This document shows, in pieces, positions 11,053 to 37,801 of a DNA stretch of 37,801 nucleotides. The notes under the pieces are model-generated. The model was not told the origin of the DNA, made no database searches, and saw nothing but the letters and a program-made list of their open reading frames with translations. The stretch comes from Macrostomum lignano (taxonomy: Eukaryota). The stretch spans positions 1-37,801 of the forward strand of contig NIVC01004696.1 of assembly GCA_002269645.1 (NCBI GenBank), read 5' to 3'. Each line of letters begins with the position of its first letter. Within the stretch, counting starts at the first letter, position 1. A program made the translations under genes and the position numbers.

Positions 11053-11167
11053 GAGAAGTCGGGCCAGCGAGTCAACAATGATAGAGTCGTCTGACCAAAA
11101 ATGATAAATTAGGTAGTATCGATGCTTGTTTTAATTCGCTGCAACTTACGACTCGACTACGACTCGT

Positions 11168-12959: not shown

Positions 12960-13300
12960 GCAAATGTTCATTAATGGCAGATTTTTTAGCCGGTGTTCTC
13001 TAACCCTCGTGTACAGGTGTCGTTTGGTCTTTCCTATATAGGAAATGCTCTTGTCATCAGAGCAATTAAATTTGTAAACAAAACCTGCAGCGAGAGGTCG
13101 GGGAACACTGGATTTCAGATTGTTCTGTTTGAGCCATAGAATTCTAGATAATATGGAAGTGAAGGCTTTTAAAAAGGGTTTGAAAATTTTACATAACCGG
13201 GCCGACTGTTTTTTCTTATTCCGTCTGACAAAACTGGGCCGTTGCTTCCCATAAAAGGGGTGTTGAGTGAGGGCCAATGAAATTTGGATGCTTGAATAGG
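12960..13300 (-). mobile_element. Penelope-like element fragment (GIY-YIG endonuclease region)
   Basis: VYKFNCSDDKSISYIGKTKRHLYTRVREH matches the PLE GIY-YIG pattern, preceded by an LxxPFYGK segment typical of the PLE linker. No clear RT core is visible; boundaries are approximate. Confidence 0.65.
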
Positions 13301-15545
13301 AGCACTGGGCCGTTGTACATAAGTCCGAAACAATTTTTTAGGGTTATGGGAATGCGCTTTGTAGAGATAGAGATAACTGCCATTTGAGTGCACGGGTGAG
13401 GGCTGTATAAATGTGCTTAAGGAAGGGGATTCGAAAAGGAACATTTCTATAAATAGTTCACTGTACTCGCTACCCTCTGCAAAAGGAGCACGGGACCATG
13501 GTGGGACAGGATATGATGCGGGTAAGAGAAAGAAACTGTACATTTATATGCGCAAGTCTTTGTTGTGTTGGTAAGATATAAGAAAACTTACAGAGGAGTT
13601 GCCAGAGGAAAAGAGCAGCTCTGCTTTTTCCACAGCAGGTTTCAGTCACACCAAGAGCTTCAAAATCTACCAGGCTTCCTTGCAGATTGCAAACGCTGGT
13701 TCGGACGGTACCGTGGCGTTAAGCCTCCTTGGTTATTCTTTCGCAGGAACGTAGAAGGGGCTTCGTTCACGTATCGTTCATCGTCAACAGCAACCAGCAG
13801 TTCGTCACAGGCTCGACAGTTTTTTGCACTAAAATCGACTTGGCGGAACTTGCCTGCGACGTAGAAAGTGACGACGTGATGTCATCAGCATCGCCTATTT
13901 CTCCCACTGCCTCCAGTTCGAGCTCAGTTTCATTGACTTCTTAATCTAGGCCTCAGGTGCTGCTTGATGATTTCGCTGCAAGGTAATGAATCTCCTGAGG
14001 CGCAACTGGCTGAACTTCAGAAGCGACACTGAGCGGATGGCTTTCTCGCTTAGGCCCTTTCTTTTACAGATTTTCCAGTCGCGCACGTTTTTTACACCAG
14101 TAAGATAGTAGAGCTGTCAGTCTATTATCCGATCTGAGACTGGATCTCGGCTGCAATCTCTCTTGTGCCTACCGATTGTGCTCGACTGCTCGCCCTCACG
14201 CTATGAATATGCCAGAGCGGAACAATAGATTGAACAAAAATTCCTGTCTCATTTCACTGCTTGCCCTGATTTTCAGAATTATATTCAAGCGCCCTGGCGG
14301 TTTACGAGCTAGGTGACTTTTTTGAATGCTCTTTGGATCAATCACGCTGAAAGTCAACTTTAAAGCCAGCTTTAAAGGCTTTTGCTTTTCAATGTTCACA
14401 GATTAACCGAGGAGGCTAAAAGGTACAGTCAGAACCAGCGTTTGCAATCTGTAAGAAAGCCTGGCAGATTTTGAAGCTCCAGAGCAGTAGCAGGCTTTTA
14501 AATTCACAGCACAGGCACACCATTCTGTTTGAGTCAGCATGCTCACTGCTCAGCTATAGCCTATATTCGAAAATCTACCAAAATGCAATTCCAAACGCAT
14601 TCTTAAAGATCAGCAAAAGTCAGCATATTATTTTGCAACTGATCTGCCGCAAAATGTTTAACGCAGCTGCTAAAGCTGGACTCGGCGACTATTAAGCCAA
14701 CCAGCTAGCTCTACCAGGAAATTATTGCGAAGTGAATTTATTGCTGCTTTTTCTATTGGACTTAATCATCAAAATAGAATTTTAACTATATTAACAAAGT
14801 AAAATAATTGTAATGATGATTGAATGAATTGAATTTCTTAATTTGAACTCAAATTTATTTCTTGATCAGAAACAGAAAAATCATTGTTGGAATGAGATTC
14901 AATGGGAATCCTACACTCACGTATTTTCAAGTCGGCCCGGTTATGTAAAGATCCAAAAAGCCTTCACTTCCATATTATCTAGAATTCTATGGTTTGAGCT
15001 AAGTGATTTATACGAGCCATAAAGTTAAAGCCACCAAATGTTAGCTAAAGAAGGGATTTTTTCAGTACAGTTGGAAGAAAAATAGTCAATACAGAAGTCA
15101 AAAAGCCTGCAGTAAGTATAGCTTTTTAGCTGGATAAAGCTCGTTTAACGTTTCTAGAGACAAAGGATTTATTGTAGAGAAAGTTTCAGATGGATCAGAT
15201 CAAAGGACGGCACTTTTGAGTTTATTTACGAAGAAGTCTTTGTTAGGCCCCGGATTTTCGGACCAATCAAAGCAGTTTGGAAATGTTTTTCGATCAAATT
15301 CCTAAACAGAAACCTATTAAGACACGCTAATTGGCCTCATTTTAGCATTGAGATGCAGAACTGAATTTAAAAAATCATTGCCCACAACTATGAGCTCGTT
15401 ATTGAAAGAATTCACAGATCTAAAAGGTCTGCCACGCCCAAAAATCGATCGATTCATTAATTGCACAGCAAACAAAGAACCGGAAATAGGGTATAAAAAT
15501 CTCAAGTATCGCCAAAAATTTTCCCCAGCACTGAAACACTCGAAG

Positions 15546-16554
15546 ATGTCACTCGCAGACGACTTTCGCATCGCCCTCATTGCCATCCTGGCCATGTCTA
15601 TTGTATTCAACGCATTATTTGTCGTCTTTACCGTGCGCCGGAAGATCGGGAGTCGACTCTGCACCATCCTGCTGCGCTCTCAAGCGGTCATTGATCTGCT
15701 TCTCATGAGCGCCAACATTCTGGTCATTCAGTTTCGTACATACGTACCTGCGCCTAGCCAGTCAGCGTCTGATGTTGCCTGGCTGATCTACTGCAAACTT
15801 TACCCTAGTCAAGTGATTTACTGGAGCCTGGTCTGCATGAGCGTCTACAACATTCTCTGCGTTTCAATTGAGCGTTGTATTTGTCTTTGCTGCCCATTCT
15901 GGTACAGATTGAACAAGCGAAGGCTCCTTACCATTCTCGCCATTGTCATTGCAGTTTCCCCATTCCTGGTAGAAGCCCCGTACTGTCTAGTTACGAGAAA
16001 CGTGGTCTACACTGACAATGGAAATGGAACAGTATTGAAGAGTTGTATTTACAACTTTATCAATGCGCAAGGAGAAAAAATAGTTGGTATATTGTACGTG
16101 ACGCTGTTCTGGATTGTTCCATTCTGCGCTATCGTGGTCCTGTATTTATGCATCATCCACCGAATTCGTCAGTCATCTAGCATGAGAGTGATTTCAGCTG
16201 GTGGTAGTAGCGGCAACGTGAGTACGGCGGCCAAGAAGCTGACCTTGACAACTGGGGTCACGGCAGCAGCTTTTGTGCTGCTATTCGACAGCGTCAGTGG
16301 ACAGCGTCACATTTCTGCTGGGCAACATCGAAATTCGAATCGTATTATCCCCCTTCTTTGACCAGCTTGACTCGTTTCTGGTTAGCATGAATAGCGCAGT
16401 GAATCCGCTGATCTACCTGATCTTCATGCCGGAGTTTCGCAACTTTCTTCTATGCTCAAGTCGCTCAACAAAGGCATCCGAGACTGACAAAACCCGAAAC
16501 AAGCCGGTGGTTGCAAACTCCGCCACAGAGATGACGCAGATCTCTCCTGGTTGA
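15546..16554 (+). pseudogene. Class A GPCR paralogue 2, frameshifted in TM6 by a 7-nt insertion (16287-16293)
   Basis: Collinear with paralogues 1 and 3 from MSLADDF through SIERC. Removing GACAGCG restores LLFSVDSVTFLL...NSAVNPLIY. Confidence 0.85.
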
Positions 16555-17523
16555 TCTAGCTAAGCTGCGTATAACAATTTCTGAACCGAAAGTAGCAACC
16601 AAAAGTAGCACGGATTTTTTATAGTACATAAGTCTTCTTCTATGTACTCGTAGGTTTAGCTGACTAACTATCTGAATACATATTTTTGACTACATTAAAC
16701 TTGTGTGTAGCTAGTACTAAATAAAAGATCTCGAACTGGTTTCGAAGGTAACTGACAAAACACTCGTGTAGACATTGTATTTTACTGACTTTGAGACTCT
16801 TTTAGAAGTGATTTTGTAAACTTTAAAAATTAGTTTGAATTGAGAATCTGTATGCATAACATCAGTGCGATAAATTATGGGAAACCTTTGAGGCAAAACC
16901 AACGATACTACTGGTGAATAGAAACAGCATGCAGCAATAAAGTCAACATTTTTGGATATTGTAAAAATGGTATCTAGCAAGAACGTAGATTATTGATTTG
17001 CCAACTAAGATATTCTCACCCTCGCCGAATCTTCGTGAAAATTTCCTGTCTATAGAACTGAGTGAGGCCGTGTCTTGACAGCACATTCTCTCAATCCGAC
17101 AAGACATCAGGAGTAGCATTGTGAAGTACAAGTGGAAACATAGCTAGAGTGGATTGTTTGTCACTCAGCCGATATGATATACAAAACTGCAATTCTTCAG
17201 GGTAGCCAGTACTACAAAACTCTATCAAATATTGAACCTATTCCTCTCATAAGTACAAGCCATAGGTGGATCAGTGGATGATGGATAAGCAAATAGGATC
17301 GATTAGAAACAGAAAAGGGTAACTCAGCAAACATAAAAAATTGCTTCCTTTTGACTAAAGTGGAATATGGAAACGCAAATAAGTATCGCTGTATCCTATA
17401 AGTATCCGTTATTAAAGTACCTTGCGATCTCACTCTCCCCACAACAGATACATATATATACGAAAATGTACAATTGTATTCATGTACTACCATGAAAACC
17501 TAGGAAACAGAAAAAAGTGTACA

Positions 17524-18465
17524 ATGTCAATTGAAAACGGATTTCGCATTGCATTAGTCACTCTATTGTGCGTTTCGTTTCTCCTCAACACCGTATTCGT
17601 TGGCTTCACAGTGCGACGCAAGATCGGCACCCGTCTCTGCACCGCCCTGCTGCGCAGTCAATCAGTCATCGACCTGCTGCTCATGGCGGCAAACTTACTG
17701 ATCATGCAGTTCAACAGTTACTTGCCGGAGCTCAGCCAATCGATTGCAGATGTTTGGTGGCAGATCTACTGCAAATTGTTTGCTAGCAGAGTTATTTATT
17801 GGAGCCTGGTCAGCATGAGCGTCTACAATCTTCTCGGCATCGCCGTTAAGCGCTGCGTTTGCCTCTGCTGTCCATTTTTGTACCGCGTGAACAAACGCAA
17901 GCTGCTAATAGGGATTTCAGTCACCATCGCAGTTTCGCCGCTTCTTGTTGAGGCACCTTACTGTCTGCTTTCAACAATGCTTAGTTATCAGGAAGTGAAC
18001 AATGGAACCAGCCACAAAAGCTGCATCTATGAACTCGATCGTCAGGCGGAACTAGGCTTCAGTGTTGCCTACGTGACATTGTTCTGGATTCTACCGTTCT
18101 GCGCAATCCTGCTGCTCTACCTGTGCATCATTATTCGAATTCGACGTTCAGTCAGCATGAGAGAGGACTCGGACGCTGGCTGCAGAGTTGGCAGAGCCGC
18201 TAGAAAACTTACCTTGACGACGGGCGTCACCGCCATTGCTTTCGTTTTCCTGTTTGCAATGGACAGCGTCACCTTTCTGCTTTATACTCTTGGCACCGGA
18301 TTTGTTCTACCGAAGTTTCTGGCCGAACTGGACTCGTTCCTGGTGAGCATGAACAGCGCGGTTAATCCGCTTATCTACTTGATCTTCCTGCCCGAGTTTC
18401 GTCACTTTATGCTCTGCTTTCGAAGTTCAGGAAGTGCAGAAGGTTCAGGTATCCCACGCACCTAA
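17524..18465 (+). CDS. Intronless class A GPCR paralogue 3, 313 aa
   Basis: Aligns end to end with paralogue 1; AVKRC at the DRY position and NSAVNPLIY. ATG chosen by alignment to the paralogue N-termini. Confidence 0.92.
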   Translation: MSIENGFRIALVTLLCVSFLLNTVFVGFTVRRKIGTRLCTALLRSQSVIDLLLMAANLLIMQFNSYLPELSQSIADVWWQIYCKLFASRVIYWSLVSMSVYNLLGIAVKRCVCLCCPFLYRVNKRKLLIGISVTIAVSPLLVEAPYCLLSTMLSYQEVNNGTSHKSCIYELDRQAELGFSVAYVTLFWILPFCAILLLYLCIIIRIRRSVSMREDSDAGCRVGRAARKLTLTTGVTAIAFVFLFAMDSVTFLLYTLGTGFVLPKFLAELDSFLVSMNSAVNPLIYLIFLPEFRHFMLCFRSSGSAEGSGIPRT

Positions 18466-24278: not shown

Positions 24279-24546
24279 AGTAGTATATAAAAAGACGCTT
24301 CTAGACCCAGAGCACTTTTTTAATGACCGTTTTAAGGGTCTAGAGGGGGGACACGGGGGGTAAATAAAAAAACACATCTAAACACCCTTAACACATCTAA
24401 TCACCCATAATCACCCCTAACAATAAAAATCACTTCCCAACACTTCCAAACACTCCCCAACACCCCCCTCGCGTCCCCCCTCTTAAGACCTTACAAACGG
24501 CCATTAAAATAAGGTCTGATCTAGAAGCGTCTTTTTCTATACTACT
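24279..24546. repeat. Terminal fold-back: ~82-bp imperfect inverted repeats (24279-24360 / 24463-24546) around a C/A-rich spacer
   Basis: AGTAGTATATAAAAAGACGCTTCTAG... versus ...CTAGAAGCGTCTTTTTCTATACTACT; the arms align throughout with scattered mismatches. Confidence 0.92.
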
Positions 24547-24603
24547 ACTCTATAACCCCTTGCCCGCGCCGCAGGCGCGAAGGGTCTTTTTCTGTTACTA
24601 AAA

Positions 24604-24918
24604 ATGACCCGAGTTTACACCTTTTCTGTTAGTGATACTTTTGAGACTGTTGCTAAAAATGCAGAGATAATAAAACAACATATTTTGAATGGAATAATTG
24701 ATGAAGTTTATTTAAAATATGACGACAAGCACGACCTAAAACTTTATCCATTAGAGCTAGATGAGATGTATGATTTAGAACAAGAGGGTGAGTTAATATT
24801 TCAACTTGGAGATTATTTAAATTCGGATGATTGGGAGGTTAGATCAACAGATTCCGAATCAACAAATAGTTCATATGAAACCAGTGATTCAGAGAATGAA
24901 AGTGAAATTTTTATGTGA
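24604..24918 (+). CDS. Polinton hypothetical acidic protein, 104 aa
   Basis: ATG in TAAAATG context; acidic C-terminus; no recognised domain. Confidence 0.55.
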   Translation: MTRVYTFSVSDTFETVAKNAEIIKQHILNGIIDEVYLKYDDKHDLKLYPLELDEMYDLEQEGELIFQLGDYLNSDDWEVRSTDSESTNSSYETSDSENESEIFM

Positions 24919-24934
24919 AAAAAATATTTAAAAA

Positions 24935-25159
24935 ATGAACTATTATTCTATAACAGAAACGACATTTATTGTGAAAAATATATATAAAAAAATGAAGGTA
25001 AACTATTCCTACATCGGAAATGTGCCGATTAATGAACTTAATGAAAATTTAAGTTTGATAACAGTTGAACAAATGTCAATAATAATATTAGTAACAATTA
25101 TAGTAATAATATTGTTTTTGTTTGTTATAAAAAATTTACTACCATGTTGTCTCAAGTAA
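24935..25159 (+). CDS. Polinton small membrane protein, 74 aa
   Basis: AAAAATG start; one hydrophobic helix (IIILVTIIVIILFLFVI). Confidence 0.45.
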   Translation: MNYYSITETTFIVKNIYKKMKVNYSYIGNVPINELNENLSLITVEQMSIIILVTIIVIILFLFVIKNLLPCCLK

Positions 25160-25169
25160 TTGTTCGAAC

Positions 25170-26771
25170 TTAGTTCGCTGATATTAGTTGGTTCTCATAA
25201 AACGAACCCAATATTTCTTCACCGTCCTTATCAGCAATTATATAGGTTGTAGGATTGGTATTTAAAACTTTACTGATAGTAAATTTCTCACTTATCTTCC
25301 AATATCCTTTTCTTCCTTTTTCAAACTTATCTTTCCATTTATAGATATAAACAGAATCACCAACCTTAAAAGATTTCTTTTTATTTTTTTCAAATTTTCC
25401 AAAAGTAACTTTAACGTTTTCAGGATTGTTATAAGCTTGTTGAGGAGTCATCTTTATCGCCGAATGATATGAATTGTTATAATCTTTCACTACGTCTGGT
25501 AATATTTTTACCCATTTTTGGTTACCATTAAGACTAAACTGAAACCATAATTTCTTACCTAAAGTTCTATTAAATCTTTCTATTAATGCGTTTTTACTCT
25601 CTCCATAAATAGAATAAATTTTATTAATATACTCCCCATTCGCGTCTTTTTTCCTTTCTTGTCCTTTTTCAAAATGATATAATTTATACATATGAGGATT
25701 GTAAAATTCTTTTCCTTCGTCAACACACAAACGTTCGCTTTTTTCTCCAAGACTTCTAAAAGCAGCAGCAACCTCCTCTCCCTTTTTGGATTTTAAAGGA
25801 ACAGCCCACGCGTATCGAGTAAAACCATCTAATATGGTTAAGATATATTTATATCCCAGATCTTTCGGCATCGACATTAAATCAGCATACCAAATTTCAT
25901 TCTTTTTGAAGTTCATGATTTTTCTATAAAATTTAGGTTTTCGATATTCTTTATGAAGAATCTTTGCCTCATCAGAACTTAACCCACTGCCACTTAATAG
26001 TAAACACTCAACACAATTATTTCCATGTTGATTATAATTAATTCCCAAACCAAATTTAACTTTAGACTGCAAAATCTTTTTAACCATCCACCTAGTTAAT
26101 CTCTGACCTACTGATAATCCCTGCAAGTTATCTAATCCTTGAATCATTTTTTGATCGGCTTCATGTTTTAATCTTAATGCTTCCTCGGGTGAGTTCTTAT
26201 CAGCATCTCTGTATGCTAAGTCATGATAGTATGCTAACCAATCAATACCGTTAATGGGAATTGAATCGGCTTTTGGAGTATTATCAGGATTTAATCGGAG
26301 ATCGAGTCGAGTCAACCCGGCCTTTATACCTTTGCTTTCACAAAGGAGTAGACTGTGTCTTAAGCTATCATAAGGATTGACTAAGTCCTTCAAGCCCACC
26401 AGCGTACAGTCGTTGCATCTCAACCATACTCAAGTCATATGAGGTTAGGTTTTCGATTCACTCTTGCCCATATATTTATCTTCAAGCTTGTTACCGTTGG
26501 GAAGAGGAGTTACCTCTGTTCCTTTGTAATCTTTCGAAAACAAAGTGGTACTTGAAGCTTTAGGGATTGAGTGAGCGGCTGGTGTTGCCACTAATAGTGA
26601 CTAGCAGTAGCTTTGCATCTACCACTCGGGCACAGCTCGAGCTCCACCCGCGAAGTTGTAAGATGGGATGTGTAATTCATTTGTATACCTTCCAGTAGTA
26701 AAGATTGGTGGTAAGCTTGTTAATCCTTTTTGAACATCTAACAATCCTCCTTCAAACACTATTTGGCTCAT
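25170..26771 (-). CDS. PLA2-like domain fused to an rve/DDE integrase; two exons (26771-26646 and ~26321-25170) split by a group I intron; ~425 aa
   Basis: Exon 1 ends ELHIPSYNFAG. Exon 2 continues TRLDLRL...PINGIDWLAYYHDLAY...HEAD...KVKFGLG (parvovirus/adintovirus-type PLA2 with HD dyad), then WYADL, YILTILDGFTRYAWAVPLKSK, LCVDEGKEF, IERFNRT, YNNSYHSAIKMTP and KVGDSV without a stop. Confidence 0.88.
26322..26645 (-). ncRNA. Group I intron (IC-like, with P5abc), ORF-less, ~324 nt
   Basis: P1: exon CGGGU pairs with GCCCG, with the U-G wobble at the 5' splice site. P3: CACCAGC/GCUGGUG. P4: UCACUC/GAGUGA. A-rich bulge GGUAACAAGCU. P6a/b: CCUAAC-CUCA..UGAG-UAUGG. R: CAACGACUG and S: AAGACACAGUCU (P7 GACUG/CAGUC). 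P9: CCUUUGU-GAAA-GCAAAGG. Terminal G. The 3' splice site is uncertain by a few nt. Confidence 0.88.
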
Positions 26772-27369
26772 TTTTAATAGCCTTAAAAATACATGAAAGC
26801 ACCAATTGTTTTGCAAATTCTTCTATGGTTGGTTGTTTATCATTTTTTGAAATATTATCTACAGCAACTAAGTATCTTTTATTTCTCCAATTTTCAGACT
26901 TTTTAATTTGTTCTTCATCGCGATAATCAAAAGATGAAGCAGGAATAAAATGGTCAACATGCAAAACACCAATATAATCTTTTGGCACATAATAATGTTT
27001 TGTGAAATTTAACCAATCAGTAAAGAATTCAATTGAGCAACCAAGGTAATCAACAGTATGATTATTTTTTCGAGCATTATTAGATTTTAGAAGAGAATAT
27101 ATTCTATTTCGTGTGTTTAAAATAAGTTTGTAATTTTCATCAGTTAATCTTCTTTCATTTTGATATTTTCTGCGCCTTTCTATATTATTTTTATCATATT
27201 CTTTTTTCCATTGAAGCTTATATTCACGATTTTTCTCATACCATTCTTTATCATACTTTCTCTCACAAGGTTTGCAAATACTATAATATCTATTTTGATC
27301 TCTACGAAATCTAAAATAATCCAAAATTTTCTCTTCTTTACATTTATTACAAATTTTTGTTTCATCCAT
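26752..27369 (-). CDS. Free-standing HNH-family endonuclease with N-terminal CxxC...CxxC zinc finger, 205 aa
   Basis: KICNKC...ICKPC, basic helical linker, YLGCSIE, HVDHFIP...WRN...DNISKNDK. TATAAAATG start; overlaps the PLA2 start by 20 nt. Confidence 0.75.
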   Translation of the reverse strand: MDETKICNKCKEEKILDYFRFRRDQNRYYSICKPCERKYDKEWYEKNREYKLQWKKEYDKNNIERRRKYQNERRLTDENYKLILNTRNRIYSLLKSNNARKNNHTVDYLGCSIEFFTDWLNFTKHYYVPKDYIGVLHVDHFIPASSFDYRDEEQIKKSENWRNKRYLVAVDNISKNDKQPTIEEFAKQLVLSCIFKAIKNEPNSV

Positions 27370-27396
27370 TTTATAAAAAATAAATTTAACAATTAA

Positions 27397-28062
27397 TTAA
27401 ACACCAGTATGTCCAGCAGCTTTCGCAGCAGCTAAAACAAGTTTTCTAGGAGTTTTAAATCCATCACCAACAGCTGGTTTGTTATTTATAGAATTAACAA
27501 TCCTTTTATACAAGCTGGTATTTTTAACAGCTCCTCCTAACTCATCATAAAAAATTCTAGCACTTATTAATTCATCCCTAGTATATAAATCAGGGTTAAA
27601 CTTTACCCTAGGGTTCATAACAATATTATATGCTCCACCCAATTCTCTATATAGTTCATTTCGATTTTTATCAACTCCACCAATTCGATAATTATTATTA
27701 CCTAAATCTGTCGCAGCAATACTAGCTGGTACTCTTGGATATTGTTCCCGATCGCCCCGCTCTGCACGTCTAATCTCTGCAATTCTCAATTGTGCTTGAT
27801 CAACATCATAAGCAGGCGGCTCATCCAAAATTTCATCCTCTTTTGGCTCCGTATTTTTAGCAATTTTTTCCAGAAGATCTTTATCTGTTTTTTCTAGTTC
27901 ACTAATTTTCCCAGTAATAGGATTAACAAAAGGAGCAGCAAATCTTTCACCCGCTAATTGTATTCCTAACTTTCTTTTTTGTAAATTTCTAACAAAATCA
28001 GAATATCTTTGCTTCTCTTTATAAATCGCTAACTCTCCATCAACGTCCATAAATTGACTCAT
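27397..28062 (-). CDS. Polinton conserved core-like protein (PZ-like?), 221 aa
   Basis: Intact ORF with TAAAAAATG start, divergent from the MCP gene. N-terminal APFVNPIT and C-terminal LVLAAAKAAGHT loosely recall Polinton PZ/core proteins. Confidence 0.55.
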   Translation of the reverse strand: MSQFMDVDGELAIYKEKQRYSDFVRNLQKRKLGIQLAGERFAAPFVNPITGKISELEKTDKDLLEKIAKNTEPKEDEILDEPPAYDVDQAQLRIAEIRRAERGDREQYPRVPASIAATDLGNNNYRIGGVDKNRNELYRELGGAYNIVMNPRVKFNPDLYTRDELISARIFYDELGGAVKNTSLYKRIVNSINNKPAVGDGFKTPRKLVLAAAKAAGHTGV

Positions 28063-28096
28063 TTTTTAACATAAAAAACTTTTTTAACTTAAAAAA

Positions 28097-29569
28097 ATGG
28101 CTGAAACAAAAACTATGTGGAGTGATAAATTTCATTTCAAAAAGCACCGACAGTATATTAATGAGGTCAGAGCAAGAGATTTAAATTATACCCTACCAAC
28201 AAGTGATAATTCAAATAACTTTACTACTGGAACGGTAACTTTTGACATCGGCGCAACCAACACTATATTGGATATGAAAAATGCGTTTTTCCGCGTTAGA
28301 TGGTTGTATACTAGAAATGATGGAACTGCTCTTGCAGCCGGAGATATCGCAGATCGATCCGGAATAATAATAGAAAATGATTGGTTTTATAAATGTTTTT
28401 CCCAAGCTCAACTAACTGTTAATGGTGCTGAGGTTGAGACATCATCAAACCCCGCAGAGATTAATGGAGTTTTGAAACATTTAAATTATACTTATTTATC
28501 AAAACAAGTTGGTGATAATGTTGGGTGGATGCCGGATAAAGGTAACGGTCAAGCAGTAGTTTTCCCTAATGTACAAAACGCAGCCGGTGCAGATACTGCA
28601 GCGCTAATTGTTTACCTTAATACAAACATAGTTCCAGTTGTAACCACTATGACTAATACAAAAGATATTAATACTGGTTTTATAGATCGTCAGAAAAAAT
28701 TCCCAGTCGCGGTTTTAACCACAGCAACAGCATATGAGCAGGACTTTTCAATCTTTCCACTATTTGGGTTTTTCTCACCAAATCGGGTATGGAAAGGATT
28801 AAAATTTGGGATACAGTTGCAAATATCTGGTGGATATCAGCCTAGGATACTTTATGGAACCTCAATTTCAACCGATATAGCAGTTCGTATAGATTCAATT
28901 CAATTAGTCGTACCAACTATTGAGGTAACAGCCCCACTTTTAAAACACATCGATAATCAGTTAACGCATGATCAGGAAATATTTTATTTGAATCGTCGAC
29001 ATTTTATGCGAACCATTAATAATAACCAGGATTCATTCCAGTGGCAAATACTGACATCAAAACGTCGGGTGAGATATATTTTTGTTTGGTTTAAGATAAC
29101 AAATAGAAGGAGTAAAAGAGCAAATGGGGATTTATATTGGCTTCAATCCGGTGCCATAGCAGAACAAGCAGCCACCGCAACAGACAATGCGGCTGCAGCT
29201 ATTAACGAGTTTAATGTTCAGAATATCCGCCTGCAGGTTGATGATCAATATTATCCGGTTAAAGACCCCCTAAATTTAAATATAGCAAATAATAATGTTA
29301 ATGATTTTATAAAATATTATCAAGATTATGCTAAAAATGAAGCGTATGCCGTCCCTCAGTACACACCCACAGAGTTTCTAAACATTCATCCAGTGGTTGT
29401 TTATGATCTAACGGCACAGAAAGAAAACGTAGCCAATATTGGACTTAATTATATGTTAGAGATTAATAAAACTGGTAATCAGGCACTTGACGCCCACGTA
29501 TTGTTTCTAGAGGAATATATGTCAATTGCTAAAGCTGATGGCACGATTGTTCGGGACGCCCCGCTGTAA
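28097..29569 (+). CDS. Major capsid protein (double jelly-roll, Polinton PY type), 490 aa
   Basis: FSQAQLTVNGAEVETSSNP, VRYIFVWF, NIRLQVDDQYYP and PVVVYDLTAQ; size and position upstream of the ATPase and penton genes. Confidence 0.85.
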   Translation: MAETKTMWSDKFHFKKHRQYINEVRARDLNYTLPTSDNSNNFTTGTVTFDIGATNTILDMKNAFFRVRWLYTRNDGTALAAGDIADRSGIIIENDWFYKCFSQAQLTVNGAEVETSSNPAEINGVLKHLNYTYLSKQVGDNVGWMPDKGNGQAVVFPNVQNAAGADTAALIVYLNTNIVPVVTTMTNTKDINTGFIDRQKKFPVAVLTTATAYEQDFSIFPLFGFFSPNRVWKGLKFGIQLQISGGYQPRILYGTSISTDIAVRIDSIQLVVPTIEVTAPLLKHIDNQLTHDQEIFYLNRRHFMRTINNNQDSFQWQILTSKRRVRYIFVWFKITNRRSKRANGDLYWLQSGAIAEQAATATDNAAAAINEFNVQNIRLQVDDQYYPVKDPLNLNIANNNVNDFIKYYQDYAKNEAYAVPQYTPTEFLNIHPVVVYDLTAQKENVANIGLNYMLEINKTGNQALDAHVLFLEEYMSIAKADGTIVRDAPL

Positions 29570-29618
29570 GCGGCGCAGGTCTCCGACCGTCGCGCCTATT
29601 TAAATTATTTCTTTAAAA

Positions 29619-30413
29619 ATGGTAAAGGCAAAACACGATAAGATATTTCCAAATGATCCTTTTCTTTGTTTAGTAATTGGTGGGTCGGGTAAAGGAAAAA
29701 CACACTTTGTTTACGATTTATTAACAACAGATGGAATGTTAGACTATAATAATTTAATAATTTATACTAATAAACCTAGAATAAAATATTATGAATTTCT
29801 TAAACATGGATTAAAAAACAAATTAAAAAAAGATGTCTTGTTTAGAATGTTAAGAGCATATGAGCAATATGAGGATGATGACGAACCGCGATTTACACTC
29901 GATGACATTGAGGATTTATGTAAAACAATGGCACAACAGCCAGAAAACATCACCGATCGCCCCGAAGGGTCGCGGACTTCGTCCGATCGAGCCCCAACTG
30001 TTAGAGTATCAACCCGATTAGCCTATGATCAAATTCCAAAACATGATAAAACACTAATTATTTTTGATGATTGTATTAATGACGGCGATCAAGAATTGCA
30101 AAAGGAAATTTTTGTTAGTGGTAGAGGAGATGGAATTGGAGCTTTTTATCTTACTCAATCCTTTAGAGAATTAGAATCGATTATAAAAAAGAATGCAAGT
30201 TGTTGTGTAATGTTTGATTTAGATAATTATGATTTACAAAATATACACGCTAGATTTAATCCCGGGTTGGATGCAAAACCATTTAAAAGTATGTGTAAAA
30301 AAATTTGGGATGATAGCCAATACAAACATATTTATATCAATCCGAGGTTAGAAAGGAAACATAGAATTTTAACAAATTTGATAAAAGAAGATAATGAGGA
30401 AGAAGAGACTTAG
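29619..30413 (+). CDS. A32-like genome-packaging ATPase, 264 aa
   Basis: Walker A LVIGGSGKGKT, Walker B LIIFDD and GR..IGAFYLTQSF. Confidence 0.92.
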   Translation: MVKAKHDKIFPNDPFLCLVIGGSGKGKTHFVYDLLTTDGMLDYNNLIIYTNKPRIKYYEFLKHGLKNKLKKDVLFRMLRAYEQYEDDDEPRFTLDDIEDLCKTMAQQPENITDRPEGSRTSSDRAPTVRVSTRLAYDQIPKHDKTLIIFDDCINDGDQELQKEIFVSGRGDGIGAFYLTQSFRELESIIKKNASCCVMFDLDNYDLQNIHARFNPGLDAKPFKSMCKKIWDDSQYKHIYINPRLERKHRILTNLIKEDNEEEET

Positions 30414-30477
30414 TTCGTGCCTATGGCACGATCGGACGGAGTCCGCGAACCAAAGGTTCGATTTCCCCACTATAAAA

Positions 30478-31263
30478 ATGACTACAAATTTAGATACTAT
30501 AAAACAATTGGTAGATCGAACTAATTCAAAATTTAGTACAACATTACAGTTTATAATGACAACCAGCGAGCAACGGATTCAATTGCGCGATCCATTACAA
30601 CTTGATCAAAGTCTAAGTTATCAAATAGGTTTGATACTATTTTCGGTTTTCAACATGCCTCAATTAATTAATGCAACAAATAATCAATTTAGATATTCTA
30701 AAGATTCCGGAGCCAATTGGACAACATTTAGCGTTAACCCAGGAGCGTATAGCTATACTGATTTGAATGCTTATATAGAAGGAGAATTAACATCTAACGG
30801 CGATTGGGTAGCAGGAGCAATTGTTATAGGTGTTGATTTACCATCTGGCAGATTCACACTATCACTAGGATCCGGATATCAGGTTGATTTCACAATTGCA
30901 AATTCACTCAGAACCATACTTGGATTTAATTCCCGAATAGTTACCACATCAAGCACCGGTGATACAGTTGGAAATATAGAGGGTGGAGTAAATACAATTA
31001 ATATAACAACCGACATTTCAAACGGTGGTTATATAACAGATAATAATGGAGTTTTGGTTCAACGTGGAATTATTTATTCAATCCCATTTCTTGCTGTTCC
31101 AATTGGAGAGAAAATGATTGTTTCACCTCAAACCCCAATATATTACCCATTAAATCAATATAATGTTCAATCAATTTATATTAGGATTGTAGATGAAAGC
31201 GATAGATTAATAAGTTTTGGTGGGCAATCAATAACAGTAATTTTACGTATAAAACAGGTTTAA
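30478..31263 (+). CDS. Minor capsid protein (penton, Polinton PX type), 261 aa
   Basis: VNPGAYSYTDLNAYI, SLRTILGF, PQTPIYYPL and IYIRIVDESDRLISFGGQSITVILRI. ATG at 30478 in TATAAAAATG context. Confidence 0.85.
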   Translation: MTTNLDTIKQLVDRTNSKFSTTLQFIMTTSEQRIQLRDPLQLDQSLSYQIGLILFSVFNMPQLINATNNQFRYSKDSGANWTTFSVNPGAYSYTDLNAYIEGELTSNGDWVAGAIVIGVDLPSGRFTLSLGSGYQVDFTIANSLRTILGFNSRIVTTSSTGDTVGNIEGGVNTINITTDISNGGYITDNNGVLVQRGIIYSIPFLAVPIGEKMIVSPQTPIYYPLNQYNVQSIYIRIVDESDRLISFGGQSITVILRIKQV

Positions 31264-31307
31264 TAGAACCGAAGGTTCGCGGACTTTGTCCGTTTCCTAT
31301 AGTAAAA

Positions 31308-31517
31308 ATGGGTAATCGAACAACATGTTCGCGTGCAAAGCACGATAATAATAATAATTTACTAAAAAAACAATCAGAAAAAGTTAAAAAAGCTGAAGAT
31401 AATTACGAACTAGAACTAGCAAAATTAAGGCAGTTACAAGCTGATAAAATAAGAAAGGAATTGTTAAAACCCACACCTACTAAACTAACTAAAACCAAAA
31501 GTTTTTCAGGAACATAA
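31308..31517 (+). CDS. Small basic Polinton protein, 69 aa
   Basis: TAAAAATG start; stop immediately before the protease ATG. Confidence 0.45.
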   Translation: MGNRTTCSRAKHDNNNNLLKKQSEKVKKAEDNYELELAKLRQLQADKIRKELLKPTPTKLTKTKSFSGT

Positions 31518-31518
31518 A

Positions 31519-31989
31519 ATGACCATGACGTGGGATGATTTTAAACAAAGATATGGAACAGACACAACAAGCAATATCGAATTAACAAATTGGGCGCGGC
31601 AGTTAAAAATAAAACCATTTAGATGTGTTATGCGAGATGAGATAAAAGACTTACCACAATATGGATGTTTCATTGTTAATATTGAAACAACAAAAGAAAA
31701 TGGTGTTCATTGGTCAGCAGTTTATTCAAAACCAAAACTTGTTTATTTTTTTGATTCATACGCGCTTCCTCCGTTACAGGAAATAAAAGATAAATTTAAT
31801 CATACTAAAAATCGTTTATGTGGAGATTATCACGAACAATTTCAAACATTTGATAAAAGTTATTGCGGGCAAGCGGCGTTGTATTTTTTATATCGACTTT
31901 CGAATGAAGCTCGTGTAAACCCCGAAGTATTTAAGATGATCATGCAAAGCATGCGTGCCGATGGCACGATTTTAGACTCTATAAAATAG
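31519..31989 (+). CDS. Adenain-like cysteine (maturation) protease, 156 aa
   Basis: GVHW (His), FFDSY (Asp) and FQ...YCG (Gln/Cys) catalytic motifs. Confidence 0.92.
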   Translation: MTMTWDDFKQRYGTDTTSNIELTNWARQLKIKPFRCVMRDEIKDLPQYGCFIVNIETTKENGVHWSAVYSKPKLVYFFDSYALPPLQEIKDKFNHTKNRLCGDYHEQFQTFDKSYCGQAALYFLYRLSNEARVNPEVFKMIMQSMRADGTILDSIK

Positions 31990-31999
31990 ACAGTAAAAA

Positions 32000-34047
32000 A
32001 TGATATTTTCTGGAACACCCTCATGGAACGGAACATCAAGTACTGGTGGTGGTGGTACTTCTGGTGGAATAAGTGTTACATTCGGAGATAATCGATATAT
32101 TAATGAAGATGAAGGTTATAAAAAAAGTGAAGTTGATACTAAACTAAATTTAAAAGGAATGTTGCAGATTCCTATACCAAAACTCAAATAGATAATTCCC
32201 TAAATTTAAAACGGAACGTAGCCGATTCATATACAAAAACAGAGGTTGACAATGGGTTAAATTTAAAAAGAGATATAACTGATTCTTATTCTCGAACTCA
32301 AATAGATGATTCATTAAATTTAAAACGCAATACGGCCGATTCTTATAGCAAAACTGAAGTTGATAATTCCCTAAATTTAAAAAGAGATATAACTGATTCT
32401 TATAGCAAAACTGAAGTTGATAATTCCCTAAATTTAAAAAGAGATATAACTGATTCTTATAGCAAAACTGAAGTTGATAATTCCCTAAATTTAAAAAGAG
32501 ATATAACTGATTCTTATAGCAAAACTGAAGTTGATAATTCCCTAAATTTAAAAAGAGATATAACTGATTCCTATACCAAAACGGAGGTTGATAATTTAGT
32601 TGGGGGTGGAGCCTTAAAGCAGGATCGATTCCAAACGGTTGAAACTGGTCACATACCTACCATGGCAGATTGGAGTGGAAATGGTTTTGCAATAACCGCA
32701 AGCACTGCATTTAATACAACTGATTTTGCAAGTTGGAAAGCGTTTGATGGAAATGATTCAACAGATTGGGCAACAAATAATACTCAAACCGATTATTGGA
32801 TTCAAGTCCAATGCCCTTCCGCAATAATGTGTTATAAAATTGATTTACGTGGTAGGCCATCACCTTCAACCGAGCACCCAGCATCATGGCGATTTGAGGG
32901 AAGTAATGACAATACAAGTTGGGACGTATTAATACCTGCGGATAGTTCTGTAGCAATAAATAACTCAACTCAAACAATTAATGTCACACAAAATTTTGAT
33001 AAAACATATTCATATTTCAGATTGTTCTGTCTTACATCAACTTCGGGTTCAACCAACCCGGGTCTGTCAACCTTCCAGATTTATAGACAGACGTTTACAA
33101 TTCTTGATTTAAATTTGGGAGTGGTTAATCAATCAATTGATATGGGAGGTAATACAATTACTAATATCTCTACTATAAACAATAACAGTTCTGTTGTTAC
33201 TAAAGGTTATGTTGATACGCGAGTAACACAAACGGCGGATGGCCGAATGTCTTTTAACGATAAAATAAAATTGGATGGAATACCTGCAATCGATGCCGCT
33301 TTGTACGAGCCTGTAATTTGCAATTGGACTGGATATCAAAACCCAACCACAGCCGGTGATATTTTTCCAACTGGAAGTTTTGTTGGCAGCGCTACTTATA
33401 TTGATTATCAAAATGGAGTTAGAATTACTGATGAAGCAAGTGGTCAGTCTGGAGCGTTGCAATTTAATTTCACCCATTTTCGTAATATCTCCGCCTCCTT
33501 CTATTTCCGAGTTGCTAATGCTACAGGAGATGGAGCTGACGCTGTTTGGTTTTATGCATATTGTCACGAACGTCCAACAAGTGAATTTGGATCCGGGTTA
33601 ACAACCCGCGCCGGCTTGATTGTGTTTGCGAGTGAATGGCATGATAGAGTTGGGGTTGTTTGGAGCAATATAAAATCAGACGGAGCAACAGTTCGTAATG
33701 ATGTTCTTAATGACGCAGATCAAACTATAACCTATGCTAATATTGATAACGGCGATTGGCATCTTTTTGAAATTAATATTTTAAATCAAAGAGTTTGGTA
33801 TCAAATAAGCACATACAATGTATCAGCTAATACATATACGCTAATTGGGCAAAACTTTTTTACATATGATAGTGGAACTTGGGGAACTTTAGATAAAACG
33901 GGAACTCTTATGGGTTTTGGTGCTCGAACTGGAGGATCGGATGCTGCACATTTTATTCGTGGTGCAGCCGTTTGTGGTAGCACATCAGCAGGATATGATT
34001 TTGCTGCGACCGCATATTTGGAACGGCCACAAACCGAAATAACTTAA
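32000..34047 (+). CDS. Fibre/receptor-binding protein: 19-aa stalk repeats, discoidin (F5/8 type C)-like domain, neck motif, legume-lectin-like domain; one 1-nt frameshift at ~32153; ~682 aa if repaired
   Basis: Adding one A to the run at 32152-32155 joins ORF 32000 to the frame of ORF 32662 with no stop. Motifs: SYSKTEVDNSLNLKRDITD repeats; WKAFDG...WIQV...WRFEGSND...YFRL; IDMGGNTITN...VVTKGYVD; GQSGAL...GADAVWF...GFGARTGG...H. Confidence 0.8.
32140..32597 (+). repeat. 57-bp coding tandem repeat, 8 copies
   Basis: AAATTTAAAA recurs at 32146, 32202, 32259, 32316, 32373, 32430, 32487 and 32544; the last four units are nearly identical. Confidence 0.95.
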
Positions 34048-34100
34048 ATCAGCTAATGCTGCGACCCTATGGGGCGATAACATAAATATTTCTATATAAA

Positions 34101-34427
34101 ATGGCTTTTAGTAGAACTCCATCGATGCGGCAAAATAATGTTATTATTCCTATTCCTAAACAAGAATCAAATATAAAAACATTCAAATCTCATACCAAAT
34201 TTTTATTTAGTACTGTAAATGTTCAGGATAATAAGAAGCTTCAAGAATTAATTAAGTTATTAAAAAATCATATTATACTTCAAGAGTTTTGGAAAATAGG
34301 ATTTAAATGGGAGAAAAAAGAAAGAATCACTCCAATACAATACCTATTGAGCTCGGGACAAATCCCCAAAGAGCGTGGGGAATTCATTTTGGTGCTATTA
34401 AAAATAGACGAGAATGTCGGTATCTGA
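34101..34427 (+). CDS. Polinton hypothetical protein, 108 aa
   Basis: TATAAAATG start; overlaps the next ORF. Confidence 0.55.
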   Translation: MAFSRTPSMRQNNVIIPIPKQESNIKTFKSHTKFLFSTVNVQDNKKLQELIKLLKNHIILQEFWKIGFKWEKKERITPIQYLLSSGQIPKERGEFILVLLKIDENVGI

Positions 34428-35057
34428 AGCAGATAAATGGGAACGCGACCGGTTCAACCAACGTAAAGGTCAGATGTTGAGTAATGTTGATCGAATAAAT
34501 TATGATTATGATTTATATACTAAAAAAGTAAGAAGAATTTCAAATCATATCAGAAATATGGACTTTTTCAATATTGGATTTGGAAGCTTATCAATGTTAT
34601 GTGTAATCGTTTTAGGTATTTTACAATCTATTCCAACTCTTAATTTATCTCAATTATTTTTAGGTATTTCAATTGGCTCAATATCAGGTTTTGAATTGAT
34701 CAGAACTTATCAATACTTTTAGCAATTAAATTATATCTTAAAAAAAGAAAGGAAAAATATAAATCATTAAGAGATGTTGCAAAACAATATAAAAATCAAT
34801 TATATTTATATGTGCAAAAAATATTGGATGACGGAGAGATAACGATTCATGAATTATCAACCGCGGTTGAATTATATGAAAAATATTTAAAAGATAGAAA
34901 TAGAATTTTAGATGTTGAAACTTTTACCGATATGGAATTAAAAGAGTTGAGACTCGATAAACCCAAAGCTCCACCTATAGAAACATTAGGTATTTACGAA
35001 CCTGAAACTATTGCTACTGGGCACAAAGCCGCGGTCAGGAAGTGCTGTAGAACTTAA
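34414..35057 (+). CDS. Putative membrane-active protein (resembles the adintovirus 'GasderminX'-type ORF), frameshift near 34695
   Basis: Two hydrophobic helices, then in the shifted frame KLYLKKRKEKY...KILDDGEITIHEL...YEKY, a pattern I associate with this Polinton ORF family. Recalled from memory, not searched. Confidence 0.45.
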
Positions 35058-35167
35058 GGTTGTTTAGTTTTTCTAATGCATATGTTATATATTCTTCCCA
35101 AAGTGGTAACTCTCTTCTGATCTAGGTTTAAATTTTTTATCAATACATAAAAATTCCAATGACTTTT

Positions 35168-35530
35168 TCATAACATTTCGTTAGGTATGTTACCTATCCT
35201 TATAAACTTTGTATTCTCTCGAATAAGAAAATTGAAATAATATCCAACTAAAATTAAAATCCTTTCAGAGTCTTTCGAACTTAATCCCTTTCCTTTATTT
35301 AAATGGAAAAAGTTATTATATAAATAAACATTATTTCCGGGAATTAAAATTGGATCAGAAATGTCTCTTGTAAGATTTCTTAAAATTGTGTTTTTAAAAT
35401 AGTAATATGAGTTTTCAATCTTTTTTGTTTTTTCAAATTGATATATTTTAGAACATGAATAACACATATGATATATATCTCCGTTTGCTGTTTGCCCTCT
35501 GTGCATAGTCACATTACATTTATTACACAT
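35168..35530 (-). CDS. Hypothetical protein with N-terminal CxxC/CxxC zinc ribbon, 120 aa
   Basis: CNKC...CYSC. Confidence 0.45.
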   Translation of the reverse strand: MCNKCNVTMHRGQTANGDIYHMCYSCSKIYQFEKTKKIENSYYYFKNTILRNLTRDISDPILIPGNNVYLYNNFFHLNKGKGLSSKDSERILILVGYYFNFLIRENTKFIRIGNIPNEML

Positions 35531-35569
35531 AAATGTCTTTCATTTTTTTGTTATTTTTTTAGATTAAAA

Positions 35570-35902
35570 ATGGAGAGCTGGTTCAAAACCGATTCTAATG
35601 TGATTAATTATCTCACACCCAATATGTTGGAGAATAAAGAATATAATATTATATGTTTGAGACAGGTTAAATTTATTGGGCTTCAATCAATATTTTTACA
35701 ATTAGATGGGCAAAAAATTTTATGTCTAAGCGGAGATGATGTTAAAAATTTTCCTGTTTTAGTTATTAATAAACCTAAAGCGTTTGTTATGAAATACAGC
35801 AACGAGGGTGGATTGCAATTTAAACTAAAACAAACAAATAATAAAAAGAGTGATAGGACTGTAAAATTGGCTTCGGTTTGGGAGGATGACGACGAAGACT
35901 AA
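35570..35902 (+). CDS. Hypothetical beta-rich protein with acidic tail (possible OB-fold ssDNA-binding protein), 110 aa
   Basis: TTAAAAATG start; ends WEDDDED. The function is inference only. Confidence 0.45.
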   Translation: MESWFKTDSNVINYLTPNMLENKEYNIICLRQVKFIGLQSIFLQLDGQKILCLSGDDVKNFPVLVINKPKAFVMKYSNEGGLQFKLKQTNNKKSDRTVKLASVWEDDDED

Positions 35903-35917
35903 ATTTTTTATAAGAAA

Positions 35918-36277
35918 ATGGATACGATAAAAATCCTTATCACTAAAGAGCGTGAACTTAATGATATTAATAAAAAAATAAATATAATTATATCTCAGAA
36001 ATATCATGAGTATGGGGACGATATGTTTCCCATCCGATATGAGATAGATAAAAGAAAACGTTTTTTAAGACAAGATATTGTTTATGCTGAAATAGTAATT
36101 GAAATTGAAATAGATAGATTGGTTAGAAAAATAAAAAAACTTAGGAAAAAAATAAAGGATTGTTTAAGTTACCCTGCCGACTGTGAGGATAATTGGTGCT
36201 CAATAATATATGAAATTGAAGTTAATGATTTGCTCAAACAATTACATGCTTTAGTTTTTTACAGACCCGATAAGTAA
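35918..36277 (+). CDS. Polinton hypothetical protein, 119 aa
   Basis: AAAATG start; coiled-coil-like composition; converges on the pPolB 3' end. Confidence 0.45.
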   Translation: MDTIKILITKERELNDINKKINIIISQKYHEYGDDMFPIRYEIDKRKRFLRQDIVYAEIVIEIEIDRLVRKIKKLRKKIKDCLSYPADCEDNWCSIIYEIEVNDLLKQLHALVFYRPDK

Positions 36278-37801
36278 TTTTTCTGTTAATCTCTTCCAGT
36301 TATTCAAGACTTTTTCCTTATTTAATTTTTTAAGTTCTTTTGGAAATGTTGAATAATAATTATCTATATCTTTTTCATATTCTAGAAATGTATTATATTC
36401 ACAATCACATTCGTATTCACAATCACAATCGTAATAATAATTATTTATTGCCGCTTTGTATTCATTATATTTACTTATTATATCTTCTTTTTGTTTTTTA
36501 TCTTTTATCATATTTTTTATCTCTTCTTTTAAACCAAATGGATATGTTTTAATTTTATCATCTAAATATCTTTTATCATCAAATGGACTTAATGTTTTTT
36601 ATCTGTCTCGATGACAAACATCTGATGCTTATCTGAATTTAATCGATATTGTGGAGCATGATAATTTTCAATTGTATTAAGGTAATCTAAAAGTACGTTT
36701 TTATAATCATCAAATGTTATCTTTTTACTGCTGCTCTTGATACCCCTTTTATTTTTTTTACCTCTCCCTCCTGTCCTAAAACCTTAAATGCATAGCATTT
36801 TGATCTTATTGCTATAAACTCGGTTATGATTTTGCTATTTAATTCATCTTTCATTTTAAGTACAACTTTTTTATTTTGATCTGATTTTAAAGGATGGTTA
36901 TCCGGATAGTCGGAGGTATCCAATGTATCCTTAATTTTTTCCATATCTTTATAGACATCGAACCTTTGGTTCGCGGACTCCGTCCGGTCATCTGTTTCAA
37001 CCTTAAATTCCAAACTGTCGGTGTCTGCATATATTGGATAGTTATCTGGCCATGTTTTATTTATAACATCATAATAGTATTCATACATTACTAGCTTTGC
37101 AAAATCTAAAACAAACCATTCCAATAAATATTGGTTTAAGAAATTTTGTTGTTTTATTTCTCATATGAATACCCATAAAGTTATCATCAAATTTTATAAA
37201 GTCTTTAAAGTTAGGTTTTGAGAAATATTTCTTTGCTTTATCAATATCCTTTTCTAAATGGAATTGGGTTCTATCTCTAATATTTTCAACCGTTTTTCCA
37301 TAAAAAGCATTATTCATTAATTTCCAATAATCTTTCTCAAAATTTGTTTTTGACATCTGTCTCTGATTTGAATTAAAGTCAATTATTTAGCTAACCAATC
37401 TTCCTCAATAAACGATATTGTTCGATGTACTTTAGACACTTTTAATCCCTGCTTTTCATAAAATTGTAGAAGCTTATAATGCACTACATAGTTTTTCTTA
37501 TCATGTAAATTTAATATTAATTTTTGTTGCTAGATGTTTTGCATTATCTACTTTAAGATAATCTTTTTGTGTTTGTGATAAATCATCTTCATTAACTGAA
37601 CAATGCTCTGGAGCTAAAGGATATTTATATGTTTTGCTTTTGCTTCCGAGTATATTGCAAATCCACTTCTACGATACAGCCCCTTCCTTCGGGAATATTT
37701 TTGTAATAATCGGGGTCATCTTCCATTGGAAATCAGCTATTGCGTAATTTTTGTTTCATACAACCACCGTATAAATTGTTTGCATCTAGATATAATACAT
37801 A
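36251..37801 (-). CDS. Protein-primed family B DNA polymerase, C-terminal part, at least five frameshifts
   Basis: Across frames: YLDANNLYG (motif A, at the window end), YPLAPE, LILNLHDKKNYVVHY, KLMNNAFYGKTVEN (motif B), IYADTDS (motif C), KCYAF, KIKGVS and LSPFDDKRY. The last frame runs into ORF 36251-36511. Confidence 0.95.

Follow-up and report, generated by a model that had tools for sequence, protein, structure and literature searches.

Sequence comparison confirmed that the segment 26645–26322 is a group I intron in the PLA2-integrase gene of a Polinton integrated in an animal genome. It lies in the window, the stretch of 37,801 nucleotides analysed here, which is an entire contig (NIVC01004696.1) of a 764-Mb assembly of Macrostomum lignano. 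To an earlier note on this DNA, which had proposed such an intron at 26322..26645, we add two further versions of the intron at this site, an allele that lacks it, an associated nuclease and the avoidance of the word GGNCC. The reading that we favor, and hold to be rather probable, is that the group I intron of this Polinton lineage is tied to a restriction-type nuclease with a short site, and that the intron removes a cut site that the element cannot avoid.

Results

The element and its genomic setting

The left part of the window is host DNA with three rhodopsin-type GPCR genes, a P4-ATPase and an EF-hand gene. The GPCR reading frames (11135–18465) are long, single-frame and in tandem, the P4-ATPase lies at about 170–2235, and the EF-hand gene occupies 8343–8750; the nearest clusters of one of the GPCRs come from animal phyla throughout. 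A let-7 match below cut-off (E 7.8e-5) hints weakly at a bilaterian host, and a mir-124 search gave no match. From about position 24279 onward the DNA is a Polinton, comprising a terminal repeat, the PLA2-integrase, an A32 ATPase, a structural block and a family B DNA polymerase in pieces (Table 1). Two hallmarks of such elements, an rve integrase (below cut-off) and an A32-like ATPase (above it), are thus both present, and the terminal repeat is seen at the left end only, the right end lying outside the window. The PF08398 cut-off is passed by an intron-less copy of the element, L059. The capsid and protease labels in the structural block are presumptive, drawn from gene order, and the frames at the contig end are taken to be polymerase from their motifs; library searches with these polymerase pieces and the capsid ORFs of the window gave no match.

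The fibre-like ORF, which also holds an F5/8 type C domain, starts with 57-nt tandem repeats (32143–32653). An imperfect palindromic repeat of 33–38 nt, possibly a small mobile element, recurs in Polinton ORFs at 29956–29993, 30430–30465, 31263–31295 and 36954–36989. A contaminant virus contig was ruled out, as host GPCR genes lie within 6 kb of the left end and further copies sit on contigs of up to 2.4 Mb.

Table 1. Features of the Polinton and its intron in window coordinates
Feature	Position	Strand	Remarks
Probable left terminal repeat of the Polinton	24279..24546		begins AGTAGT; inverted arms of 27 nt; right end outside the window
Exon 2: remainder of PLA2-like domain and rve integrase	25170..26321	-	PF00665 E 1.3e-6, PF08398 E 0.02, both below cut-off
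Start of exon 2 with two P10 partner segments (26321-26314, 26311-26304), 9 nt apart	26304..26321	-	invariant in 23/23 type A copies aligned
Group I intron, type A, 324 nt	26322..26645	-	interrupts the PLA2-integrase frame after YNFAG
P8, 3' strand of P7 (26355-26350), P9 with GAAA loop	26329..26396	-	from Rfam match, helix extraction and folding
P3, P4, P5abc, P6, 5' strand of P7	26397..26584	-	P5abc as in sister introns; P4, P6, J3/4 and J6/7 wholly different
P2 and P2.1 hairpins	26587..26626	-	in-frame stop inside; common to type B
P1 with internal guide 26631-26627 and U-G wobble	26627..26650	-	intron nt 2-11 also in P10
PLA2-integrase exon 1, 42 codons	26646..26771	-	ends YNFAG; agrees with the start of the uninterrupted frame of L059
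Nuclease slot overlapping the PLA2 start	26752..27369	-	window ORF is HNH/endonuclease VII-like (phrog_1035, E 1.7e-11)
Polinton structural block	28088..34047	+	major capsid (probable), A32-like ATPase, minor capsid (probable), protease-like ORF and an F5/8-containing fibre-like ORF; capsid and protease labels presumed
A32-like ATPase	29604-30413	+	PF04665, above cut-off
Family B DNA polymerase (presumed), several frames	36589..37801	-	broken or mis-assembled at the contig end

Structure of the window intron

The intron of the window, here called type A, contains the pairings of a group I core. A base-by-base check placed exon nucleotides 26650–26646 opposite 26631–26627, with a U-G wobble at the 5' splice site, and scripted strand extraction gave 7/7 pairs for P3 (26584–26578/26403–26397), 6/6 for P4 (26574–26569/26463–26458), 3/3 for P6 and 6/6 for P7, the last with a bulged C26412 and a G-C guanosine site. 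Both the P3–P7 pseudoknot and the P4–P6 stack are present, and the segment folds with z = -2.67 against 100 shuffles of it. All the helices that the earlier note had named (P1, P3, P4, P5abc, P6, P7, P8 and P9) pair as it described, and the in-frame stop that it had located at 26619–26621 is indeed a TAG (26621–26619).

A periphery of P2/P2.1 and P5abc is a feature of subgroup IC1; type A has both, and P9.1/P9.2 are absent. The A-rich bulge of its P5abc is, we presume, near the Tetrahymena sequence. The core is atypical: J3/4-P4 and J6/7 read CGC, UCACUC/GAGUGA and GCA, and not the AAAUUGCGG-type J3/4-P4 with UCA J6/7 of the Rfam consensus, both of which are present in the sister introns described below. 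Owing to this P4/P6 core the window intron scored only 32.1 bits against RF00028 (E 1.7e-6 in a 471-nt scan), so that the covariance-model check suggested in the earlier note yielded a match, albeit one below the gathering score of 50, which introns at the same site exceed. A scan of the whole window against Rfam gave no match, and four other type A copies (L002, L017, L023 and L024) had no Rfam match at E ≤ 1 in multi-locus scans.

The window intron is 1 base shorter, in a P5 homopolymer at 26562, than the other 22 aligned type A copies and than contigs from three sequencing runs; the missing base is probably an assembly error. In the type A copy L024, P8 is interrupted at 1891–2719 by an insert of 829 nt; it has TG...CA termini and a 4-nt duplication, and resembles a solo LTR.

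An allele series at one site

Intron junctions at this site are numerous in the assembly, amounting to about 170: 24 of type A and 145 of a second kind, with 0 for both control patterns. The second kind combines type B, found in the same Polinton family as type A (family 1), with the introns of a second Polinton family (family 2), whose structural proteins are 23–33% identical to those of family 1. Type B is an ORF-less intron in at least 40 copies and scored 59.8–65.8 bits on RF00028 in 9 of the 10 copies tried. Family-2 introns bear an ORF and, among the matches listed, scored 72.7–91 bits in 28/28 copies, all above cut-off; a metagenome contig (L080) has, at the same codon, an ORF-bearing intron that scored 80.6 bits. 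The survey for similar introns that the earlier note advised thus turned up 145 sister junctions, two Polinton families and one metagenome contig.

Its other suggestion, a search for intron-less Polinton copies, also bore fruit: L059, of family 1, has no intron and reads YNFAGPGTRLD, which fixes the insertion site. The search pattern was suited to family 1, empty alleles of family 2 being outside its reach, and no intron-less type A junction was found in the assembly. Uninterrupted homologous loops numbered 65 among the 120 proteins listed. At its empty site (about position 1510) L059 has a C where the intron copies examined have the splice-wobble U, and it is therefore not the product of plain intron loss from any of these copies. 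These data, together with the covariation described below, ruled out ordinary coding or UTR sequence, while an assembly artefact was ruled out by the 24 type A copies and by the presence of the intron in four sequencing runs.

Several variations accompany the series. Type B ends in A, not in the usual terminal G, in 8/19 copies (L029, L067, L070, L073, L076, L079 and others); in these copies P7 retains its G-C guanosine site. Loops of family-2 introns are filled by sequence similar to the 33–38 nt palindromic repeat of the Polinton, and a long family-2 hairpin of about 100 nt (L147, 980–1097) has sub-threshold matches to several miRNA models.

Covariation and an apparently mosaic core

Between intron types, both sides of pairs in P1, P3, P4, P6 and P7 change. 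P4, P6 and P7 are fully paired in each type with different sequences (70/74 loci read), and the exon base at -4, a synonymous position, follows its guide partner: among 24 type A copies the pair is G/C in 23, with 1 unread, and among 48 others it is A/U in 47, again with 1 unread. Because the copies are related, these changes represent few independent covariation events.

Type A agrees with type B in P2 and P5abc and with L080 in P5, P8, P9 and the 5' strand of P7, while its J3/4, P4, P6 and J6/7 are replaced. As judged from its sequence, type A thus looks like a mosaic, and like a natural chimeric ribozyme. In a search for donors, type A core patterns had 0 matches in viral contigs and none in phages, and the 12 matches in prokaryote genomes fall within the chance estimate of about 30. 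A 16-mer of P5abc matched viral sequences 41 times, with an intron context in none by eye.

Splice sites and predicted product

The 5' splice site lies after 26646, and the 3' end is most likely 26322. Where the earlier note could identify no convincing P10, we found two registers: the first 14 nt of the intron pair with exon 2 segments 9 nt apart, and both registers preserve the frame. The register from 26321 (exon +1) has 8 pairs at -9.8 kcal/mol, a strength reached by 1 of 1082 control 9-mers, and that from 26312 has -9.2 kcal/mol, reached by 3 of 1082. At 26322 type A shows no clear P9.0, and the P10 for 26313 is equally strong. In L080 P9 is followed by the same 7-nt tail as in type A, and the last base of this tail is the G that corresponds to 26322, which favors 26322 as the 3' site. 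Hence, of the sites that the earlier note had weighed, the in-frame AAAG|GCC (26322) is preferred on P10 and on the L080 tail, with 26321, 26316 and 26313 as the alternative ends considered.

A join of 26646 to 26321 would give F-A-G-A-G-L-T, one residue more than homologs have, at a junction free of GGNCC. In 65/65 homologous loops exactly two residues separate G from T, with Ala in place of Pro in 5/65, and single-step splicing of type A never yields a two-residue loop. Because no homolog has the type A loop length, a working PLA2 from type A is uncertain, and the integrase could instead be supplied from a downstream in-frame ATG or from the 145 sister alleles. Overall, we give the 26646–26321 join a little better than an even chance for type A; little or no splicing is unlikely, use of 26313 somewhat more so, and any other or two-step route has the smallest share.

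None of the sequencing runs listed as containing the sequence was labelled RNA, and 14 were only guessed to be RNA; four of these, from four studies, were examined as contigs. Unspliced type A contigs span both junctions in these runs, which indicates presence only, since contig depth cannot rank the forms; on the same footing of presence, no spliced type A joint occurs in the contigs of the four runs. A single joint appeared (X3, depth 3.2); its sequence is that of L059, the intron-less allele, and it is therefore not a splice product. Splicing of type A RNA, and with it the dependence of the integrase on a ribozyme that the earlier note had envisaged, are candidate properties.

Avoidance of GGNCC

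A Gly codon followed by a Pro codon always spells GGNCC. In the PLA2 calcium loop the intron separates the Gly codon from the Pro codon; it enters between bases 3 and 4 of this word and therefore splits GGNCC in the DNA. In both families the word is otherwise avoided: it occurs 0 times in 21 kb, with about 20 expected. The window from 24279 to 37801 has 0 against 15.3, 11.5 and 8.4 expected (Markov orders 1, 2 and 3), a family-2 copy of 7701 nt has 0 against 8.4, and GGNCC ranks lowest of the 256 abNcd words in each. The controls were limited to the host flank and 11 IMG/VR loci; the flank has 28 against 21–22 expected, and the word is not depleted in 11/11 loci.

The same pattern extends across loci. 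L059 has a single GGNCC in 3023 nt, namely the empty site. The word is absent from 26/29 family-1 loci (L024, with its foreign insert, has 6) and from 7/7 nuclease-bearing family-1 loci checked, and from the PLA2 start onward in 24/28 family-2 loci. Gly-Pro likewise occurs 0 times in 2961 and 2303 residues of protein from the window and the family-2 copy, against 5.2 and 5.5 expected; when the encoded proteins are kept constant, GGNCC is only modestly depleted (0 against 4.0, P 0.02; 0 against 3.4, P 0.03). The scarcity of Gly-Pro in homologous integrases (7 against 60) was dropped as support, other Polinton integrases being alike (4 against 25). Two further words, CTNAG and CANTG, are likewise scarce between 24279 and 37801 of the window, where they reach about 40–50% of expectation and are not absent; in family 2 CANTG shows no such shortage. 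The Polinton family of the window may be subject to other nucleases as well.

A restriction-like nuclease

Sister copies carry a gene for a predicted nuclease with a PD-(D/E)xK fold and its catalytic residues. In family 2 and L080 the intron itself houses the gene; certain family-1 copies have it as a free-standing ORF directly upstream of the PLA2-integrase, 60–64% identical to the family-2 intron ORF. This free-standing, Eco47II-like ORF occupies that slot at 6 of the family-1 loci with a readable ORF there, all 6 of type A. Most other family-1 loci, including the window and L059, have an HNH/endonuclease VII-like ORF in that slot, and the window copy itself thus carries the HNH-like ORF and not the Eco47II-like nuclease. 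The slot is exchangeable: across the window and L001–L029 it holds two HNH-like variants, the Eco47II-like gene and, in L021, an unrelated ORF.

Against PF09553 (Eco47II) the nuclease gave E values of 1.4e-5 and 1.1e-3, with scores (25.2 and 19.1) below the cut-off of 25.9, and it also matches phage and bacterial restriction-like clusters. A structure model (pLDDT 73.9; residues 169–233 unreliable) found its best fold match in EcoO109I (Z 9.3, rmsd 4.0, 162 aligned), the only chain with Z ≥ 8 among 48,161. Residues E49, D65, E76 and K78 are invariant in 11/11 sequences, and the protein, of about 165 residues, shows no evident additional domain for DNA binding. EcoO109I cuts RGGNCCY. An Eco47II homolog has been linked to GGNCC in the accessible part of one report (PMC10305163). 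Judging by these relatives, the nuclease of these elements probably cuts GGNCC, and the word-avoidance data suggest that its target is a short site.

Among 157 nuclease relatives inspected, 8 end in a translated intron core (a ninth, matching in one motif, was set aside as a chance hit), and the nuclease-in-intron arrangement therefore occurs in other assemblies too. The nuclease was not found in viral contigs, and no partner methylase was found among the window ORFs scanned, which belong to an incomplete element.

Discussion

Our preferred explanation proposes that the nuclease cuts GGNCC and that intron-less rivals would therefore be cut at the PLA2 site, and would then either perish or, by homing, be repaired from a copy that bears the intron. 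The nuclease would thereby spread or enforce the intron, which would in turn act as methylase-free protection of the one site that the element cannot easily mutate away. RNA splicing would follow the usual two-step guanosine pathway, type A joining 26646 to 26321. In its strongest form, which we put forward tentatively and with less confidence than the link itself, animal Polintons would contain a methylase-free restriction system in which a GGNCC cutter of bacterial type is directed at rival viral DNA, the word is purged from the element and the intron hides the essential Gly-Pro site. Host DNA is rich in GGNCC and would have to escape the enzyme; as a guess, expression confined to a lytic phase or to a compartment outside the nucleus might suffice.

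The intron might instead be an ordinary selfish one that homed into a conserved loop by means of a conventional homing endonuclease with a long target, the lack of GGNCC arising from another nuclease (of the host or a helper virus) or from composition. Nucleases both intron-encoded and adjacent form a known homing pattern, namely collaborative homing (PMC11296320, as far as the available text goes); type A sits on several exon and upstream-gene backgrounds with the first 18 nt of exon 2 invariant, as homing predicts, and CTNAG and CANTG are low in the window as well. We nevertheless regard this account as unlikely, for the small nuclease has no evident extra DNA-binding domain, and the absent word is the very word that is linked to the Pfam family of the nuclease and split by the intron, in two families.

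Somewhat less probable again is that type A is decayed or splices poorly and makes no working PLA2, the protein coming from type B copies or from an internal integrase start. The mosaic core with its 32 bits, a loop length matching no homolog, the lack of a clear P9.0 and the unspliced contigs across both junctions (a sign of presence only) would fit such decay. It is at odds with core helices that pair fully in 21/23 readable copies, with P5b differences that are paired changes, with variation at 38/325 sites in the intron compared to 25/90 in exon 1, and with a frame 3' of the intron that is full length in 18/24 copies. A very improbable variant preserves function by another path: after a 26646–26320 join, re-binding on the repeated CGGGU six bases on, together with the second P10, would excise two more nucleotides and leave a two-residue loop. 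The guide pairs equally well with both CGGGU words, the second P10 register reaches -9.2 to -10.8 kcal/mol, and this is the sole route to the spacing of 65/65 homologs; yet it requires an unusual re-binding step, no product of it was seen, and the L080 tail length favors 26322, not 26321.

On our preferred explanation, a restriction-like nuclease and the avoidance of its likely site give the intron a concrete job, and the free-standing and intron-captured states of one nuclease stand side by side in one genome. It also becomes testable whether animal pre-mRNA allows a group I ribozyme to function. If the restriction system proposed above is real, the intron would be a part of immunity and not a parasite, and one genome would display its stages: empty site, bare intron, adjacent nuclease, captured nuclease and a re-cored intron with a site-less junction.

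Relation to known systems

Yamada reportedly described group I introns from viruses of eukaryotes in 1994, to go by the title. Our literature search, in which subscription journals were thinly covered, found no group I intron in an animal Polinton and no such nuclease link; the accessible parts of 10.1101/2023.08.22.554363, PMC11296320, PMC8502044, PMC3424549 and 10.64898/2026.10.13.758929 likewise contain no animal Polinton group I intron. The earlier note had judged the intron unusual, and the setting in a nuclear, virus-like element of an animal is indeed unreported in the literature searched, but its novelty is narrower than the note implied because group I introns have been published in protist Polinton-like viruses (PMC12220804). 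According to the accessible text of that report, these are likewise RF00028 introns, of about 310–380 nt, in integrated multicopy Polinton-type elements; the hosts are Rhodomonas, Paulinella and Desmodesmus, the intron lies in a short ORF upstream of the capsid gene, and, unlike here, that text describes no nuclease link or site avoidance.

Reviews portray nuclear group I introns as nearly absent from animals. Animal group I introns are known only from sponges, cnidarians and placozoans, where they are mostly mitochondrial and of subgroup IB4 (PMC11835236), and from five shark species (PMC10964413), as far as the available portions of these sources show; those described here differ in being nuclear, in a viral protein gene and in about 170 copies. 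In structure they resemble the nuclear IC1/IE rDNA introns of the Tetrahymena type, which have P2/P2.1 and a P5abc with GAAA loop, as here, and which the available text of PMC8395846 describes as restricted to the rDNA of microbial eukaryotes, whereas ours occupy a protein gene of an animal element. In P4 the sister introns also follow the AAAUUGCG type found in the Rfam consensus, like nuclear IC1/IE rDNA introns, whereas type A differs from the latter in its P4/P6 core and in having no P9.1/P9.2.

The nuclease has precedents as well. I-Ssp6803I, a PD-(D/E)xK homing endonuclease with a 17-bp target, likewise places a restriction fold inside a group I intron (PMC3424549, in the part available), whereas our data suggest a 5-bp site that is avoided element-wide. 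Eco47II and EcoO109I have the same restriction fold, the difference being that no partner methylase was present among the ORFs scanned here. Collaborative homing, as outlined in the accessible text of PMC11296320, pairs a free-standing nuclease with an adjacent ORF-less intron, an arrangement that also occurs in some family-1 copies. Finally, gp210 of phage PhiPA3 is, in the portion of PMC11620839 available, an intron nuclease used by one co-infecting virus against another; it is of the HNH type and has a single target, in the rival phage. The enzyme described here differs in that it is restriction-like, belongs to an animal element and occurs both free and inside an intron within one genome.
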